The notes: generated from the letters alone by a model not told the origin. 64,000 nucleotides of DNA from Escherichia coli (GCF_050920415.1 NZ_CP169309.1); one strand, 5' to 3'; shown: positions 518 through 30,600, numbered from the stretch's first letter. Program-made: numbers and translations.

Positions 518-2395
518 ACGCCAAGTGAACTTAGCGACCTGCTTTGGGCGCAGGTTGACAGGGTGGCTCCGCACCTGTTGCCAAACGGCAAGAAAGAGGG
601 GCATGAGTGGGTTGCCGGTAACGTCAACGGTGACAAGGGAAACAGCCTTAAGGTCAACCTTAGCGGCAAGAAAAAATGGGCTGATTTCGCTGAGGGAGAC
701 GGCGGTGACATGCTTGATTTGTGGATGGCATGTCGTGGAATTAACCTGCATCAGGCTATGCAGGAAGCGAAAGCCTTTCTCGGTATCAAGGATGACGATC
801 ACCATTTCGATGCCAAACGTGAGAAGAAATTCTCCAGACCTGATCGCAAGAAAATCGCCCGCTACGTTACCAGAACAGAATCCCATCTTGAGTACCTGCA
901 ATCGCGTGGCATATCGCCAGAAGTCGTAAAGCGCTACGAGGTTGTCAGCGGCAAGGTGTGGAATGGAGAACGAGAACTTGATGCACTGGTGCTTCCGTAC
1001 AAACGCGATGGTGAGTTGTTGCAGGTCAAGCGAATCAGCACTGAGCGCCCGGACGGGAAGAAAGTCATTATGGCAGAAGGTGATTGTGAACCTTGTCTGT
1101 TCGGATGGCAGGCTCTGGACGCTGGCGTGAGGGCGGTTGTGCTTTGCGAAGGCGAAATTGATTGTATGAGCTATGCGCAATACGGCATCTCGGCGTTATC
1201 CGTGCCGTTTGGTGGAGGAAAAGGCGCTAAGCAGCAGTGGATTGAGTTTGAGTATCACAACCTCGACAGGTTTGAGGAAATATTCATCTCGATGGACGTT
1301 GATGATGTTGGTCGTGAAGCCGCAAGGGAAATCGCAAGCCGACTCGGTGAACATCGTTGCCGTCTTGTTACTCTGCCGTACAAAGACATCAACGAATGCC
1401 TGATGAACGGTGTTACCGAGGATGAAATCTGGCAGTACATCGGCACGGCATCCTACTTCGATCCTGAAGAACTCTACAGCGCGCGAGAGTTTTACCAGGA
1501 CACTATCAACGCTTTCTACGGCAAGCAGCAGTATCTATTTAATCCACCGTGGGAATCTCTGGCAGATAAATTCCAGTTCCGTGAGGCCGAGTTGACGCTG
1601 GTCAATGGTGTGAACGGTCACGGAAAAACGGAGGTTGTCGGGCATATGGCACTTGAGGCAATGCGTCAGGGTGTGAAGACGTGCATCGCGTCACTTGAGC
1701 TGAAGCCTGGTATTCTCCTTAAGCGCCTTACCCGTCAGGCAACGTGCTGCAAGATGCCGCCAGTGCTTGAAATTGACTCTGCATTTAAATTCTATGACGA
1801 AAGACTTTGGGTGTTTGGCCTGACCGGAACGGCGAAAGCCGACAGGTTGATCGAAATATTCGACTACGCTCGCCGCCGATACGGCATCCAGTTATTCATC
1901 ATCGACAGCCTGATGAAATGCGGCATAGGTGACGATGACTATAACGGGCAGAAAGCATTTGTTGACTCGATTTGCGACTTCAAAAACAAAACAAACTCCC
2001 ACGTCATTCTCGTTACTCACTCCAGAAAAGGAGACAGCGAAGAAAAACCAACCGGGAAAATGGACGTAAAAGGCTCTGGAGCGATAACAGACCTGACAGA
2101 CAACCTTTTCATCATCTGGCGTAACAAGGCTCGCGAGAGAGCGTTACAGAGAGTTCAGAGTGGTGAAAAGATGTCAGAGAAGGACGAACAGCTACTGGCA
2201 TCTCCGGCATCTGTTTTGATGCTTGAAAAACAACGTAACGGCGAAGGTTGGGAAGGTGGTGTCCCGTTGTTCCTTGACGAGCAATCGCACCAGTTCCTGC
2301 AACTTGAATCAGGATCGCCTTATAGCTACATCGCCAATATGCCGAAATCGGAATATGACGAGGCGTGGCGACAGGAAAACGTGACGGAGTATTAA
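515..2395 (+). CDS. Phage DNA primase/helicase (Toprim domain fused to DnaB/T7-gp4-like helicase)
   Basis: Toprim acidic motifs (CEGEID, DVDDVG), Walker A GVNGHGKTE, Walker B-like LFIIDSL; 626 aa. Confidence 0.8.
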   Translation: MTPSELSDLLWAQVDRVAPHLLPNGKKEGHEWVAGNVNGDKGNSLKVNLSGKKKWADFAEGDGGDMLDLWMACRGINLHQAMQEAKAFLGIKDDDHHFDAKREKKFSRPDRKKIARYVTRTESHLEYLQSRGISPEVVKRYEVVSGKVWNGERELDALVLPYKRDGELLQVKRISTERPDGKKVIMAEGDCEPCLFGWQALDAGVRAVVLCEGEIDCMSYAQYGISALSVPFGGGKGAKQQWIEFEYHNLDRFEEIFISMDVDDVGREAAREIASRLGEHRCRLVTLPYKDINECLMNGVTEDEIWQYIGTASYFDPEELYSAREFYQDTINAFYGKQQYLFNPPWESLADKFQFREAELTLVNGVNGHGKTEVVGHMALEAMRQGVKTCIASLELKPGILLKRLTRQATCCKMPPVLEIDSAFKFYDERLWVFGLTGTAKADRLIEIFDYARRRYGIQLFIIDSLMKCGIGDDDYNGQKAFVDSICDFKNKTNSHVILVTHSRKGDSEEKPTGKMDVKGSGAITDLTDNLFIIWRNKARERALQRVQSGEKMSEKDEQLLASPASVLMLEKQRNGEGWEGGVPLFLDEQSHQFLQLESGSPYSYIANMPKSEYDEAWRQENVTEY

Positions 2396-2422
2396 ATGAC
2401 CATCTACATCACTGAGCTAATA

Positions 2423-2455
2423 AAAGGCCTGCTGGTAATCGCAGGCCTTTTTATT
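2423..2455 (+). terminator. Rho-independent terminator between primase-helicase and ninB
   Basis: Hairpin AAAGGCCTGC-(loop)-GCAGGCCTTT followed by T-run. Confidence 0.6.
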
Positions 2456-2472
2456 TGGGGGAGAGGGAAGTC

Positions 2473-2913
2473 ATGAAAAAACTAACCTTTGAAATTCGAT
2501 CTCCGGCACATCAGCAAAACGCTATTCACGCGGTACAGCAAATCCTTCCAGACCCAACCAAGCCAATCGTAGTGATCATTCAGGAGCGCAACCGCAGCTT
2601 AGACCAGAATCGGAAGCTTTGGGCTTGCCTTGGTGACGTCTCTCGTCAGGTTGAATGGCATGGGCGTTGGCTGGATGCAGAAAGCTGGAAGTGTGTGTTT
2701 ACCGCAGCATTAAAGCAGCAGGATGTTGTTCCTAACCTTGCCGGGAATGGCTTTGTGGTAATAGGCCAGTCAACCAGCAGGATGCGTGTAGGCGAATTTG
2801 CGGAGCTATTAGAGCTTATACAGGCATTCGGTACAGAGCGTGGCGTTAAGTGGTCAGACGAAGCGCGACTGGCTCTCGAATGGAAAGCGCGATGGGGAGA
2901 TCGGGCTGCATGA
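2473..2913 (+). CDS. ninB: NinB recombination protein
   Basis: Translation MKKLTFEIRSPAHQQNAIHAVQQ... matches lambda NinB as recalled; start at internal ATG 2473 with GGGAGAGGGAAG SD. Confidence 0.9.
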   Translation: MKKLTFEIRSPAHQQNAIHAVQQILPDPTKPIVVIIQERNRSLDQNRKLWACLGDVSRQVEWHGRWLDAESWKCVFTAALKQQDVVPNLAGNGFVVIGQSTSRMRVGEFAELLELIQAFGTERGVKWSDEARLALEWKARWGDRAA

Positions 2914-3437
2914 CTATCAAATCAAATACGCCAGCACACGACAAGGACTGCTGGCAAACGCCGCTTTGGCTTTTTGATGCACTGGATATTGAGTTTGGAT
3001 TCTGGCTGGATTCGGCAGCGAGCGACAAAAACGCTCTGTGCGCTCACTGGCTAACTGAGGCCGACGACGCGCTCAATTCTGAGTGGGTAAGCCACGGTGC
3101 AATCTGGAATAACCCACCGTACAGCAATATCAGGCCGTGGGTGGAAAAAGCCGCTGAGCAGTGTATACAACAGCGACAGACGGTAGTGATGCTTGTGCCA
3201 GAGGATATGTCAGTCGGATGGTTCAGCAAGGCTCTGGAGAGTGTCGACGAAGTTCGTATTATCACTGATGGACGGATTAATTTTATCGAACCATCGACAG
3301 GGCTAGAGAAGAAGGGAAACAGCAAAGGTTCCATGCTGCTGATTTGGCGACCGTTCATCAGTCCTCGACGGATGTTTACTACCGTATCCAAAGCGGCATT
3401 GATGGCGATCGGGCAGGGCGTCAGGAGGGCGGCATGA
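2910..3437 (+). CDS. Phage DNA N6-adenine methyltransferase (Dam-family)
   Basis: NPPY catalytic motif (..[11 protein letters not shown]..); start overlaps ninB stop (ATGA); occupies the ninC/ninD position. Confidence 0.8.
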
Positions 3438-23070: not shown

Positions 23071-23100
23071 ACCAACCTCCTTAGTTTTGAGCAGGATACC

Positions 23101-23466
23101 ATGAAAAAAGTTAACATTGGAAACGTACCAAAGATGCTCGTACCGCTCTTTGAGAGCGGTACAATTGTGTTTTGTAGAGACTTTCCAGAATGGCAACGCC
23201 TGCATCAAAAACTTGGCGTTGACGTGCATGACTCGGACGCCAACGGAGCGTCTCATACAATGAGTAGCGAGAATGGTGTTTTGCATGTGATAGGCGTGTT
23301 CAATGGCAAACTATCTACTATTGCCCATGAGTGCGCTCACATGGCATTCGATATCTGCTCAAGGGTAGGTGTTGATGTTGAACCAGGAAGAGCCAACGAG
23401 ACTTACTGCTACTTAATGAGCAGGCTTGTTGAGTTCTGCGAGCGACATATCAAAAAGCCGGAGTGA
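23101..23466 (+). CDS. Putative zinc metallopeptidase (HExxH motif; ImmA/IrrE- or SprT-like)
   Basis: 121 aa; HECAH motif at residues 76-80. Confidence 0.45.
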   Translation: MKKVNIGNVPKMLVPLFESGTIVFCRDFPEWQRLHQKLGVDVHDSDANGASHTMSSENGVLHVIGVFNGKLSTIAHECAHMAFDICSRVGVDVEPGRANETYCYLMSRLVEFCERHIKKPE

Positions 23467-23479
23467 CCCGGCTTGATTA

Positions 23480-23659
23480 TTACTTTTTGCTGTCTGGAGT
23501 TCGCTTATCCAATACCCAGCCATGACCTGGCTTTGTTGTTGGTGGAAGCCTTTCGTTGTCCTTGACGGTGGCAAAATTGTCTTTCTTACCGCCGCGTGGG
23601 CCAACTTCTTGGTATATTCCGCCGTTTTTTCCTGTGTTTTCACCTGGTTTTTTCGCCAT
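23480..23659 (-). CDS. Hypothetical small Gly/Lys-rich protein (59 aa)
   Basis: ATG preceded by GAGG; MAKKPGENTGKNGGIYQEVGPRGGKKDNFATVKDNERLPPTTKPGHGWVLDKRTPDSKK. Confidence 0.45.
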   Translation of the reverse strand: MAKKPGENTGKNGGIYQEVGPRGGKKDNFATVKDNERLPPTTKPGHGWVLDKRTPDSKK

Positions 23660-23758
23660 GATATACCTCAACATACACCCGTTATTGGGCGATTAAATAT
23701 TGATCTCATTTTATAAGTAGTCAATATGGCCCAGGTAAATGCAAAAATTAACTCACCG

Positions 23759-24010
23759 TCAGGTGGTTTTTTTGTACAAATCCTTCAGCGTATCAAACAC
23801 CATCTTCTTAACAAGATCTGACTGCTCATCAGCGAGTCGTTCTGCATCGTCACGATATCCAGTCACAGGCGATGGTTTTGATAGAGCATCTTGGACGATT
23901 TGCAACAATTCTGAGTTCATTGATCTACCATTTGACTCTGCTCTGTATTTTAATTTTTCTCTTACTTCCAAAGGCATGCGGAAGTTAAAGTGCGGATCGT
24001 CTCTAGCCAT
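23759..24010 (-). CDS. mnt: Mnt repressor (ribbon-helix-helix)
   Basis: 83 aa; matches recalled P22 Mnt (MARDDPHFNFRMP.EVREKLK.RAE.NGRSMNSELLQIV..). Confidence 0.9.
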   Translation of the reverse strand: MARDDPHFNFRMPLEVREKLKYRAESNGRSMNSELLQIVQDALSKPSPVTGYRDDAERLADEQSDLVKKMVFDTLKDLYKKTT

Positions 24011-24033
24011 GCCATCACTCCAAGTTAGTATCT

Positions 24034-24291
24034 TTAACTTTCGTCTTTATTGTTGCCATACATGCATTTCAACTTCTCAACATCATGTTCAAGATCTATC
24101 AATCGTGATGCTATAGTTGCAAGGTCTAGTGCTTGAATGTGTTTATTTTTTTCGGTCCATGCTTCAAGTGCCGCGACCATCTCAGCATTTAATGAACGAG
24201 AATTAGCCTCAGCCAGTTCAATAAGACGTTCCTTTATCTCTACAGGAAGCCTCAGATTCACTTGAGGGTTTTTGTACTTACGATCAGACAT
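24034..24291 (-). CDS. Arc/Mnt-family ribbon-helix-helix regulator (second RHH protein)
   Basis: RHH N-terminus PQVNLRLPVEIKERLIELAEANSRSLNAEMV; directly upstream of mnt on the same strand. Confidence 0.7.
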   Translation of the reverse strand: MSDRKYKNPQVNLRLPVEIKERLIELAEANSRSLNAEMVAALEAWTEKNKHIQALDLATIASRLIDLEHDVEKLKCMYGNNKDES

Positions 24292-24396
24292 CGGCACATC
24301 CTGAATAATTTTTTACCACAGGATATGTAGGTATCTATTGACTATCAATGCGTACCTAAATACTATGTATGCGTACCACATACAACGGAGGATGCA

Positions 24397-24537
24397 ATGA
24401 AGGTAAAAACACTGCGTATGCCAGAGAAGTTAGAAAAAATCCTTGAAGAGAAAGCAAAGGAAGAGTGTCGCTCATTTAGCGCAGAAGTAATTAAACGGGT
24501 GATGGACAGCCTGAAGAGAGATGGGGTGGCGATATGA
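24397..24537 (+). CDS. arc: Arc-like repressor (46 aa RHH)
   Basis: MKVKTLRMPEKLEKILEEKAKEECRSFSAEVIKRVMDSLKRDG resembles P22 Arc as recalled; divergent from mnt. Confidence 0.7.
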   Translation: MKVKTLRMPEKLEKILEEKAKEECRSFSAEVIKRVMDSLKRDGVAI

Positions 24538-24716
24538 ATAAAGAAGATGGCTTTAAGTGCTCCTTCTGCTGAAAGCCTCAGCATGAATGTGCAATGTTGA
24601 TTCGCGCTAAAGCAGAGATATTTATCTGTAATGGTTGTGTATCTCTTTGCGTTGAAGCGATGGGGAAAGAGTTAAATTCTAGAAAAACAATGTTAGATGT
24701 GAGCATAAAACAGTGA
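24534..24716 (+). pseudogene. ClpX-type C4 zinc-finger small protein with in-frame TGA at 24570-24572
   Basis: MNKEDGFKCSFC-TGA-KPQHECAMLIRAKAEIFICNGCVSLCVEAMGKE.. parallels ClpX N-terminal zinc finger (CSFCGK...ICDECV..LC); TGA sits where ClpX has Gly. Confidence 0.5.
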
Positions 24717-24778
24717 AGCCCCAACTGCGGTAACAGTCAGGGCTTCGGTATCAACAAAACTTACGAGGTATTATTGAT

Positions 24779-25348
24779 ATGTCAAGCTTAGCAAAGTCAA
24801 CTGTAAATTGCACTAATAGCATCATCATTTCTGACGTCAAGATTCATATGGATTCAGAGGGTCGTTACTCGCTTAATGACCTTCATGTAGCGTCTGGAAA
24901 GGAGGAAAAACATCAGCCAGCTTTCTTCATGCGTAGAAATGAAACTATTGAATTGATTAATGAAATTTTTAATTCTGCGGATATGCAGAATAAGAATCCC
25001 GTCATTTCTAAGAAAGGTAGATATGGTGGAACATACGTGTGCAAGGAGCTTGTTTACTCCTACGCCATGTGGATTAGCGCAGCATTTGCGCTGAAGGTTA
25101 TCCGCGCATATGACGCAATGGTTACTGCCACACAAGAGAGGAAGGCTATTGGCGGTAAAACTTCAGTAGCTGAACGCACGCCGCTACGCGATGCAGTAAA
25201 CATGCTGGTAGGAAAGAAAGGACTTCGCTATGACGATGCATACAATATGGTTCATCAGCGTTTTGGTATTGACAGCATTGATGAACTTTCAATTGAACAA
25301 ATCCCGCTGGCCGTAGAGTACATCCACAGGGTAGTGCTTGAAGGTGAG
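24779..25348 (+). pseudogene. ant: Antirepressor Ant, 5' part (KilA-N domain), interrupted by IS2
   Basis: KilA-N-like N-terminus; reading frame runs into IS2 left end, which supplies the stop (TAG at 25349-25351). Confidence 0.75.
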
Positions 25349-25439
25349 TAGACTGGCCCCCTGAATCTCCAGACAACCAGTATCACTTAAATAAGTGATA
25401 GTCTTAATACTAGTTTTTAGACTAGTCATTGGAGAACAG

Positions 25440-25805
25440 ATGATTGATGTCTTAGGGCCGGAGAAACGCAGACGGCGTACCACACAGGAAAAGATCGCAA
25501 TTGTTCAGCAGAGCTTTGAACCGGGGATGACGGTCTCCCTCGTTGCCCGGCAACATGGTGTAGCAGCCAGCCAGTTATTTCTCTGGCGTAAGCAATACCA
25601 GGAAGGAAGTCTTACTGCTGTCGCCGCCGGAGAACAGGTTGTTCCTGCCTCTGAACTTGCTGCCGCCATGAAGCAGATTAAAGAACTCCAGCGCCTGCTC
25701 GGCAAGAAAACGATGGAAAATGAACTCCTCAAAGAAGCCGTTGAATATGGACGGGCAAAAAAGTGGATAGCGCACGCGCCCTTATTGCCCGGGGATGGGG
25801 AGTAA
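25440..25805 (+). CDS. insC: IS2 transposase OrfA
   Basis: [41 protein letters not shown].. matches InsC as recalled. Confidence 0.9.
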
Positions 25806-26668
25806 GCTTAGTCAGCCGTTGTCTCCGGGTGTCGCGTGCGCAGTTGCACGTCATTCTCAGACGAACCGATGACTGGATGGATGGCCGCCGCAGTCGTCAC
25901 ACTGATGATACGGATGTGCTTCTCCGTATACACCATGTTATCGGAGAGCTGCCCACGTATGGTTATCGTCGGGTATGGGCGCTGCTTCGCAGACAGGCAG
26001 AACTTGATGGTATGCCTGCGATCAATGCCAAACGTGTTTACCGGATCATGCGCCAGAATGCGCTGTTGCTTGAGCGAAAACCTGCTGTACCGCCATCGAA
26101 ACGGGCACATACAGGCAGAGTGGCCGTGAAAGAAAGCAATCAGCGATGGTGCTCTGACGGGTTCGAGTTCTGCTGTGATAACGGAGAGAGACTGCGTGTC
26201 ACGTTCGCGCTGGACTGCTGTGATCGTGAGGCACTGCACTGGGCGGTGACTACTGGCGGCTTCAACAGTGAAACAGTACAGGACGTCATGCTGGGAGCGG
26301 TGGAACGCCGCTTCGGCGACGATCTTCCGTCGTCTCCAGTGGAGTGGCTGACGGATAATGGTTCATGCTACCGGGCTAATGAAACACGCCAGTTCGCCCG
26401 GATGTTGGGACTTGAACCGAAGAACACGGCGGTGCGGAGTCCGGAGAGTAACGGAATAGCAGAGAGCTTCGTGAAAACGATAAAGCGTGACTACATCAGT
26501 ATCATGCCCAAACCAGACGGGTTAACGGCAGCAAAGAACCTTGCAGAGGCGTTCGAGCATTATAACGAATGGCATCCGCATAGTGCGCTGGGTTATCGCT
26601 CGCCACGGGAATATCTGCGGCAGCGGGCTTGTAATGGGTTAAGTGATAACAGATGTCTGGAAATATAG
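25763..26668 (+). CDS. insD: IS2 transposase OrfB (overlaps orfA in -1 frame)
   Basis: 301 aa; DDE transposase matching InsD as recalled. Confidence 0.9.
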
Positions 26669-26679
26669 GGGCAAATCCA

Positions 26680-27005
26680 GTGAGTTCATTGGCAAACAAG
26701 AGAAGAAAACCAACGAGCTTTCTGCAAAAGAAGCAAACAGCCTTGTATGGTTATGGGATTATGCCAACCGCTCACAGGCATTATTCCGCGAATTGTATCC
26801 GGCATTAAAACAAATTCAATCGAACTATTCCGGCAGATGTCATGACTGCGGTTATGAGTTCTCCCGTATTATCGATATAGCGAGAGACGTTTTAATTAAT
26901 CACACACGAGATGTTGATATCAATGAGCCAGACGGACCAACGAATCTTTCCGCATGGATGAGACTTAAGAATAAAGAATTACCTCCTTCAGTACATAATT
27001 ACTGA
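26680..27005 (+). pseudogene. ant: Antirepressor Ant, 3' part
   Basis: After removing IS2 and one TSD copy (1336 bp) this frame joins 24779..25348 in frame, reconstructing a 296-aa protein. Confidence 0.7.
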
Positions 27006-27105: not shown

Positions 27106-29063
27106 ATGACAGACATTACAGCCAATGTTGTAGTGAGCATGCCTTCGCAACTCTTTACTATGGCCCGCTCTTTTAAAGCCGTAGCTAATGGTAAAATTTA
27201 TATCGGTAAAATTGACACTGACCCGGTAAATCCTGAAAACCAGATTCAGGTTTATGTAGAGAACGAAGACGGCTCTCACGTTCCTGTTTCGCAACCAATC
27301 ATCATTAACGCTGCTGGATATCCGGTATATAACGGACAGATTGCCAAATTCGTAACTGTGCAAGGCCATTCTATGGCTGTATATGATGCGTATGGTGCAC
27401 AGCAGTTCTATTTTCCTAATGTGCTGAAGTATGACCCTGATCAGTTTAAGCAGCAGTTAGAAAGCGATGCTGATGGAATGGGAGATGCATTAGTTACAGT
27501 TAAACAACCGTACACTGGTGCTACTTCTATTTCACAGCACATTAAAAATTCACAGGCTATAAGTGTTATTGATTTTGGCGCTACAATTGACGGAACGCTT
27601 CACCCTTTAAGCGAGATATTTTCAACACTATCAGCCGCTCAGATGGTATATCCATTTGTTTCATCTCTATCTCAATCTGTTGATTATGCTGCGCTTCAGT
27701 CCGCATGTAACACGGGAAAAACAGTGCTTATTCCAAAGGGAACTGGTTACTATAATTCAACTATTTTTCTGAAAAACTCCGTCAGGATTGTTGGAGAGGG
27801 AACTGATACAATAAATAGAGCGCAATCATTTATGTCTATTGTTGGTAATATTTCAGCCTTTGCTTTAGATCAAGGTGATTCACTATCGACAAAAATGATT
27901 CAGATTTTTATTGATGGTCTTTATATTTTCTATGATCCAGGAACCACACCAACGAATCCTGAAGATGATGGTGGGAAAATTGCATTTAATTTCTACTCGA
28001 CAATTCCAAATTCAACAAGCTTGGAAATGTCTGAAATTAAAAACTGTACAGTTCATGGTGCATGGTCATGCTTTAATGATCAGACTGGCACATACTTGAC
28101 AAAACTTACGAATGTGTGGGCCAGAAACTGCCATAATGGTTTTACAAAAGGAACTGGCACTACCATTCTGATGGAAAGATGTTATACATCTGGATGTATA
28201 TCACCATATCAGTTTGGTTCTGTCTTTGCAGCTACAATGATTAACTGTGCCATGGATGGATCAAATATTTCGTTAAACGCAGGTTCGCTTGGTGGGGCTG
28301 GCGTTCATGTTCTTAACACACATAGTTTTAACATTATTGGTTTTGATGCGGAGGGTAACACCATCTCTACAGATGGTTATGGAGAGGCAGCACTATTCCA
28401 TTTCGAAAATAGTAGTGGTGGCATTTCTGGCCTGACTGCACATCAGAACAGCATGCGAAGTGTTGCGCCAAGTGATGCTGGTGTAGTTTCCTACATCAGG
28501 GCGTCAGGTAGCAGCGATGTAAAATTGAGTCATCAGAAGATGATTTATCTGACACCAACACAGTTGCATATACTGGGTCTGGGTATCCCATCATGCTACA
28601 TGCAACTGACACAGCTAAAATAAGCGTCTTTAATAGCAGATTCAGGGCGACTACCACTGGTACCCCTGTCTTAAGTACGCTAAGTACTGGTGATGTATCA
28701 TGGTATGACTGCCCTAAAAAAACAGGACTTATCGTAGATGGTTATTCACAAATAACATCTAAGGAAGGATTGCAAACATCATGCTTCTATACCAGTAAAG
28801 GCTCTACTGCTGTTGCTGAAAATACTCCGACAACACTTTTCTCTCTACCAGATTCGCAAGGTACTTACATTATTAGCGTATGGGGGGCTGGAAGCGGAGA
28901 AAATTACGCATCTACACAACTGGCAATGTATGATGGAGATAAGCTAATTCTTGTTGCGTTAAAAATAGCAGCATTTCTTAGTTTTTCAGCAACAGGGAGA
29001 ATTGTAACCATTACAAGCCAGGGCACAGGCACTTTTAATTGGACCTACACAAAAATAGGTTAA
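27106..29063 (+). pseudogene. Tailspike with P22-like head-binding N-terminus and divergent receptor-binding domain; apparent 1-nt frameshift between 28512 and 28590
   Basis: N-terminus [11 protein letters not shown]...[33 protein letters not shown] matches P22 gp9 as recalled; frame 27106..28623 and frame 28512..29063 overlap, together about 652 codons. Confidence 0.65.
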
Positions 29064-30525: not shown

Positions 30526-30600
30526 TGGTGTCCCCTGCAGGAATCGAACCTGCAATTAGCCCTTAGGAGGGGCTCGTTATATCCATTTAACTAAGAGGAC
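30526..30600 (-). tRNA. argW: tRNA-Arg (argW), prophage integration site
   Basis: Reverse complement reads GTCCTCTTAGTTAAATGGATATAACGAGCCCCTCCTAAGGGCTAATTGCAGGTTCGATTCCTGCAGGGGACACCA. Confidence 0.95.

Follow-up and report, generated by a model that had tools for sequence, protein, structure and literature searches.

[quoted passage not shown] Here we describe a gene for a stand-alone domain of this type, located in the immunity I (immI) region of a P22-like prophage and interrupted by a premature stop codon that very probably makes this copy a pseudogene.

The immI region of phage P22 combines divergent promoters, an Arc-family gene, the antisense RNA gene sar and an antirepressor with a P22_AR_C domain. 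All of these recur, together with an identical hairpin, in the window, by which we mean the whole 64,000-nucleotide stretch of Escherichia coli DNA that was analysed (GCF_050920415.1, NZ_CP169309.1). The prophage in the window is P22-like, of the Lederbergvirus type, and adjoins tRNA-Arg(CCT) (argW, 30526-30600); on the flank, the mlaA-fadL region matches an E. coli chromosome with 100% identity. As expected of a P22-type immI, an Arc-family repressor gene and an antirepressor gene are present with a sar gene (RF00262) between them. The features of the region are as follows, in window coordinates.

23759-24010, - strand: second mnt-like copy; CUS-3 likewise has two annotated mnt genes at this place
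24034-24297, - strand: mnt-like repressor gene of the Arc/MetJ family (PHROG 795/228)
24348-24320, - strand: Pmnt-like promoter, divergent, from a consensus scan
24338-24366, + strand: Pant-like sigma-70 promoter, TTGACT-17-TACTAT, from a consensus scan and a consensus-level match only
24397-24537, + strand: arc, an Arc-family repressor gene of 46 codons that opens the Pant operon (PHROG 228 'Arc-like repressor', E=5e-8)
24534-24716, + strand: stand-alone gene of 60 codons for a ClpX-type C4 ZBD, very probably a pseudogene (profile, structure, orthologue WP_047668240.1)
24570-24572, + strand: premature opal stop at codon 13, in place of the GGA (Gly) of the CSFCGK zinc knuckle, which alignments indicate to be ancestral
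24594-24716, + strand: residual 40-codon ORF from Met21, without the first CxxC pair (in STEC_7v a 'hypothetical protein', EGE64283.1)
24712-24777, - strand: sar antisense RNA gene (Rfam RF00262, 62.8 bits versus a gathering score of 43, E=3.7e-12)
24779-25348, + strand: 5' part of ant, with the KilA-N N-domain, cut by IS2 (PHROG 2812/129/2127)
25349-26679, + strand: IS2, 1331 bp, complete, inside ant (NCBIfam IS2 TnpA/TnpB; junctions)
26680-27005, + strand: 3' part of ant, with the P22_AR_C domain; the translation matches the C-termini of STEC_7v Ant and CUS-3 Ant

In position, the promoter-like pair corresponds to the divergent Pant and Pmnt of P22 immI. A Pfam Arc domain is recorded on the identical arc gene of two related loci (L013 and L014). 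The stem of the sar terminator (24715-24746), a terminator-like hairpin of 14 pairs, extends into the stop codon that ends the zinc-finger gene, and positions 24714-24749 are 100% identical to P22; the 5' part of sar faces the ribosome-binding region of ant. Unlike P22 immI, the window has two mnt-like genes and an ant gene split by IS2, whose 5-bp target duplication, GTGAG, is found at 25344-25348 and 26680-26684. The STEC_7v prophage encodes an intact 296-aa Ant in which KilA-N and P22_AR_C are joined.

A further difference from P22 lies between arc and sar. In P22 only 3 nt separate the arc stop from the sar terminator hairpin, whereas the window has a 177-nt zinc-finger cassette there. Small ORFs occupy the same slot elsewhere, namely in CUS-3 (67 aa), vB_EcoP-611R6 (73 aa), EC.P3 (89 aa) and phiv205-1 (57 aa), and each of them overlaps the arc stop, as ATGA or GTGA, and ends at the TGA that opens the hairpin. 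With the left boundary reading …GGGGT.G.G.TATGA and the right boundary TGAAGCCCCAAC…, at least five unrelated small ORFs are found in this slot, none of them in P22. Its coordinates are 24537-24716 in the window, 1584-1805 in L010, 1584-1853 in L011, 1581-1754 in L012 and 447-451 in L026. The zinc-finger gene is one of several alternative cassettes with fixed boundaries, running from the arc stop to the sar terminator, and it is found with three types of antirepressor N-domain (KilA-N, P22_AR_N and Bro-N). An intact copy would be transcribed from Pant, translationally coupled to arc and upstream of ant. The region corresponds to the hypervariable 'ant moron' of Casjens and colleagues (PMC2629481).

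In CUS-3 (L009, CP000711.1), positions 2532-2738 and 2735-2938 are annotated just as 'bsq2 boundary sequence'. This stretch contains an Arc ORF almost identical to the arc of the window; CUS-3 is described in the epsilon34 paper as being without arc. The coupled 67-aa Cys-rich ORF (CCFCG...CSDCV) is present on more than 1,000 contigs. Its product has no Pfam match and may be a very diverged ZBD, for which the hhalign comparison (P=4.4e-4, probability 33%) is no more than suggestive.

The zinc-finger frame comprises 60 codons at 24534-24716 on the + strand, and its start overlaps the arc stop as ATGA, the ATG occupying 24534-24536 and the TGA of arc 24535-24537. It translates as MNKEDGFKCSFC up to an internal TGA at codon 13 (24570-24572) and then as KPQHECAMLIRAKAEIFICNGCVSLCVEAMGKELNSRKTMLDVSIKQ up to the terminal TGA at 24714-24716. 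The first-pass annotation had described it as a small ClpX-type zinc-finger gene coupled to arc, with an opal codon exactly at a conserved Gly. Sequence and coordinates agree with the coupled 60-codon frame. The position of the stop is likewise as described: the near-identical intact genes have GGA at this codon, and Gly directly follows the second Cys in 37 of the 42 aligned ZBD sequences (the window protein and 41 homologues). The annotation also drew attention to the frame continuing beyond the TGA. As a description this is accurate, with 47 sense codons still open, but it counts for little as evidence, since an open run of that length is by itself unremarkable (roughly 10% by chance, a rough estimate); the frame remains open past the stop because the mutation is recent.

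Protein comparisons were made on the window frame with codon 13 restored to Gly. The repaired protein matches Pfam PF06689 (zf-C4_ClpX) with E=3e-11 over model positions 2-36 of 39, and it matches ClpX ZBD structures in the PDB, including that of E. coli (1OVX, E=1.2e-7) and 2DS5 (E about 1e-7). The four Cys ligands, C9, C12, C32 and C35 in a CxxC...CxxC arrangement, are invariant across the 42-sequence alignment. The likeness to ClpX, first noticed in the two CxxC pairs and their spacing, lies far above chance. In an AlphaFold2 model of the repaired protein the core (residues 11-40) has pLDDT values of 89-93, and the PDB entries that fit it best are 2DS5, 2DS6, 2DS7 and 2DS8, all crystal structures of the ClpX ZBD, with an rmsd of 0.7-0.8 A over 38-39 residues and a probability of 1.00. 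The predicted fold is that of the ZBD, with its zinc knuckle, beta-hairpin and C-terminal helix. The zinc-finger assignment of the repaired frame is solid. A full-length ClpX unfoldase is ruled out: the gene has 60 codons and no AAA+ module, and NCBIfam ClpX models match at positions 3-54 only, with 30-34 bits against cut-offs of 359-371. In the window copy there is no uninterrupted ORF encoding the domain, the TGA at codon 13 preceding the second CxxC pair.

Intact forms of the gene are found in other prophages. The complete E. coli genomes LR-64-1 and AR_0118 carry a 60-codon gene in the same place, between Arc and the antirepressor, whose product is WP_047668240.1, named 'ClpX C4-type zinc finger protein' in RefSeq. 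This gene is an orthologue of the window gene, occupying the same slot between arc and ant and being identical at 180 of 183 nt. The three differing bases, given as change towards the window, are GGA>TGA (G13*), AGT>AAT (S33N) and AAC>AGC (N57S). RefSeq copies of WP_047668240.1 and its cluster, from prophages of E. coli, Salmonella and Shigella, are intact. At 90% identity the protein cluster has 13 variants, all of 60 aa, and its main allele, labelled 'ClpX C4-type zinc finger protein [Enterobacteriaceae]', is present on 469 contigs from E. coli and Salmonella; about 500 contigs carry intact orthologues. The gene is rare nonetheless among complete E. coli genomes (9 of 5,426), which argues that its function, whatever its nature, is dispensable. 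Each of these nine copies differs from the window at 3-4 of the 183 bases, and none therefore has the TGA allele.

To recover the ancestral state at codon 13, we searched with a DNA pattern permitting any base at the mutated site. Seven of the eight loci recovered have G at this site; the IMG/VR contigs among the results number six, five with G and one with T. In genome and metagenome contig collections, the exact pattern with any base at the mutated position gave no match, because the gene is too rare for them. Every intact allele that was compared has GGA at codon 13, and no allele other than that of the window's lineage has anything but GGA or GAA there. Alignment with homologous prophage loci thus indicates that GGA is the ancestral codon, from which a single G-to-T change makes the stop.

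The TGA itself is not confined to the window. Five other E. coli contigs, among them STEC_7v (GCA_000194575.2) and GCA_021088925.1, carry an exact copy of the residual 40-aa ORF that starts at Met21 and has N33 and S57. As in the window, G13*, S33N and N57S occur together at these loci, which are identical to the window over 23880-25349 but for one indel. In total, the TGA allele is common to at least six records, window included. Given that the same TGA is present in independent assemblies, it is no sequencing error but a change with a single origin, passed down within one prophage lineage. In the STEC_7v-type genomes with the TGA, ant is intact (296 aa), and IS2 is absent from the loci L004, L013 and L014; the TGA is therefore older than the insertion of IS2 into the ant gene of the window. 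A second variant of the 40-aa ORF (P0018) was considered as an independent truncation and rejected, because the gene there is intact, with GGA, and had been called too short. The first-pass annotation had left a choice between a fresh nonsense mutation (GGA to TGA) and a site of recoding or readthrough. The nonsense mutation and its GGA ancestor stand; 'fresh' does not, for an allele that is shared by at least six records and predates IS2.

With intact orthologues, one disabling change and an inherited allele, the window copy has the marks of a unitary pseudogene. We consider it highly probable that a nonsense mutation specific to this lineage has made a pseudogene out of an accessory gene of P22-like prophages. 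In the argW-located lineage to which STEC_7v also belongs, the G-to-T change turned Gly13 (GGA) of the CSFCGK motif into TGA, and the sequence contains no signal that redefines the stop. On this account translation would halt after 12 residues, leaving two of the four zinc ligands, and no zinc finger would form; loss of the protein would cost the lysogen little or nothing.

Other parts of the prophage also differ between members of the lineage. Relative to STEC_7v and GCA_021088925.1, the window has a 1-nt deletion at 28519 that divides a 652-aa tailspike into ORFs of 505 aa and 156 aa (27106-28623 and 28593-29063); either the prophage has decayed further here, or a homopolymer was misread in sequencing. 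The IS2 of the window is absent from the otherwise near-identical STEC_7v prophage. At window position 24146, within the mnt-like gene at 24034-24297 (- strand), STEC_7v is without one T that is present in the window and in L014, which shortens the mnt-like gene call to 54 aa (L013 3534-3698); members of the lineage thus carry different small immI lesions. Lying between the region of the DNA-transfer genes and the distal mnt-like gene, window positions 23088-23822 and L013 positions 2386-3230 form an unrelated stretch of roughly 0.7 kb, with about 99.9% identity on both sides. The ant moron has here undergone a local replacement of mosaic type.

Three other explanations of the stop codon were weighed against the pseudogene. 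That the T at 24570 is a sequencing or assembly artefact of one record might be thought of for any single-base difference, the more so in a window whose 1-nt deletion at 28519, a tailspike frameshift, is itself possibly an error. Nevertheless, GCA_000194575.2, GCA_021088925.1, three further contigs and an IMG/VR record have this T too, along with the two missense changes linked to it. These independent assemblies effectively refute a sequencing error, and we give the idea practically no weight. Programmed recoding would have the UGA read as selenocysteine, or as Trp by readthrough at a useful rate, perhaps to supply the full-length finger at a deliberately low dose. It would account for the 47 codons open past the stop and for the persistence of the allele in several genomes with intact ant, and the A that follows the stop makes for a termination context short of the strongest. 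Against this, the UGA lacks conservation, all other alleles having GGA or GAA. The fold of 24560-24640 (81 nt) is no better than that of shuffled sequences (z=-0.69), and the interval some 11-40 nt 3' of the UGA, the place required of a bacterial SECIS, contains no hairpin. With permissive settings, Rfam yields sar alone over 23600-25400. Downstream of the stop, the bases are those of the intact alleles except for the two missense changes, so that no signal has co-evolved with it. Moreover, Trp or selenocysteine in place of the knuckle Gly would probably harm the fold. The suggestion of a recoding or readthrough site thus fails on each of these counts, and we regard it as very improbable. Low-level natural readthrough of UGA in E. 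coli may still give a little full-length protein with Trp13.

The third explanation is that the nonsense allele was selected, either through re-initiation at Met21 (24594), giving a 40-residue fragment, or through uncoupling from arc, which would lower ant expression (by polarity, or by freed sar pairing) and make lysogeny stabler. Gene callers do annotate the 40-aa ORF; but there is no Shine-Dalgarno-like sequence upstream of Met21, and a fragment with one CxxC pair would have no C4 site. About 200 nt are left untranslated before ant, a stretch that is not C-rich, so that Rho-dependent polarity is not predicted. Within the N57S sub-lineage, G13E and G13* are two independent changes of codon 13, and another allele, C9Y, has lost a zinc ligand, a pattern that hints at repeated inactivation; that two of six changes should fall in one codon is nevertheless not statistically unusual, with a probability of about 0.25 by rough estimate. 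On balance, selection for the nonsense allele appears improbable, and we retain the lineage-specific nonsense pseudogene as the preferred reading.

Variation in the intact gene bears on the same question. The differences among near-identical alleles are all non-synonymous (six of six: G34S, S33N, N57S, G13E, G13* and C9Y), and damaged alleles circulate: C9Y loses a zinc ligand, and G13E alters the same codon as the stop. This pattern would fit relaxed constraint as well as function, the counts being too small to separate relaxed constraint from selected loss. A homologue with 88% identity in the same slot of another prophage (L024) has kept all of its Cys residues, and differs by four synonymous and six non-synonymous changes (pN/pS about 0.33). 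From this one diverged homologue, with its small counts, there is a weak indication of purifying selection on the intact gene.

The relatives of the gene are distant. A word-indexed protein search returned the gene's own cluster only, and its 50% cluster has no close relatives. By tblastn against 50,697 phage records we found no close relative, the best matches being below 60% identity, and the gene is thus known from prophages only. More broadly, about 2,000 clusters at 50% identity match the zinc-finger protein at E<=1e-3; the top-ranked of these are mostly short proteins with 2-4 ZBD copies, and further matches include PHROGs 6797, 12435 and 5259 and a gene of the P2-like phage P88. By its sequence the window gene belongs, in disabled form, among the stand-alone ZBD proteins of PF06689. 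Neither the zinc finger nor the neighbouring genes matched any PADLOC defence model. A literature search found no study of what this protein does, nor any on phage ClpX ZBDs that stand alone. The view in the first-pass annotation that a ClpX zinc-finger mimic between arc and ant had not been described therefore applies to the searchable literature and not to databases, where RefSeq already names the WP_047668240.1 family; the family is annotated but functionally uncharacterised.

What the intact protein does can be proposed by analogy with the isolated ClpX ZBD. We tentatively suggest that it may act as a ClpX N-domain decoy that damps adaptor-dependent ClpXP proteolysis. It would dimerise as the ClpX ZBD does, and would compete for ZBD-dependent adaptors or substrates, or poison the ClpX N-domain by pairing with it. 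Adaptor-dependent ClpXP proteolysis would then be transiently damped while the arc-ant operon is on. It is rather doubtful, though conceivable, that such a docking-domain mimic, co-produced with the antirepressor, briefly protects proteins of phage or host against ClpXP at anti-immunity or induction, with C9Y, G13E and G13* reflecting a costly activity that is repeatedly lost in established lysogens.

Two kinds of neighbouring gene touch on the same proteolytic system. A gene for a 178-aa ClpP-related protease lies just downstream of mnt, on the same strand, in L024 (2958-3494, -), L012 (533-1069, -) and L011 (536-1072, -). It matches the NCBIfam models for a ClpP-like prohead protease/major capsid fusion (6.8e-14) and a ClpP-related head maturation protease (4.9e-13) as well as Pfam CLP_protease, and by eye the catalytic Ser and His seem to be kept. 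To our knowledge P22, the best-known member of the group, has no prohead protease. In L024 the ClpP-related gene and the ClpX-ZBD gene share one accessory region, and a functional pairing is possible. A SocA/Panacea-domain protein is also encoded in several immI regions with an intact zinc-finger gene (L001 1686-2129; L022 and L023 1106-1549). The founding member of the SocA/Panacea family is a ClpXP adaptor-type antitoxin, and this neighbour may represent a second ClpXP-related theme or a coincidence.

Taken alone, the stop codon matters little, being an ordinary case of gene decay in a prophage that is degrading. Its value is in pointing to an uncharacterised stand-alone ClpX adaptor-docking domain, coupled in translation to arc and so built into the best-studied type of antirepressor operon, that of P22 immI. 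Were the intact protein to interfere with adaptor-dependent ClpXP proteolysis, it would link a phage immunity switch to regulated proteolysis in the host and would constitute a natural, genetically encoded ZBD competitor; as a docking-domain mimic, it would found a new class of protease modulators, encoded by phages and working through domain mimicry. The natural alleles GGA, GAA, TAC (C9Y) and TGA form a ready allelic series, and the fixed cassette slot between arc and sar should aid the annotation of P22-like prophages.

The closest characterised domain is the N-terminal ZBD of E. coli ClpX (residues ~1-60), with which the repaired protein has in common the CSFCGK...ICxxCVxLC motif and the four Cys ligands, at an identity of 42-45% over ~39 residues. 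The loop of the repaired protein is one residue longer, and the Gly-Pro of the LIAGP segment is missing. Unlike the domain in ClpX, the phage-borne gene stands alone, without an AAA+ module and co-transcribed with arc and ant, and the window copy ends early, at codon 13. Other proteins with stand-alone or repeated ClpX ZBDs, mostly uncharacterised and many of them short with 1-4 ZBD copies, share the domain, but their identity is only 33-50% and their genomic contexts are unlike that of the immI gene. In its proposed logic, that of a small protein blocking selected substrate delivery to an AAA+ protease, the intact protein would resemble the anti-adaptors IraD, IraM and IraP, which act on RssB. 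The phage Lon inhibitors T4 PinA and T7 gp4.5 follow a like logic. The zinc-finger protein has no sequence relationship to the anti-adaptors or to the Lon inhibitors, and unlike them it would act by mimicry of the protease's own docking domain.
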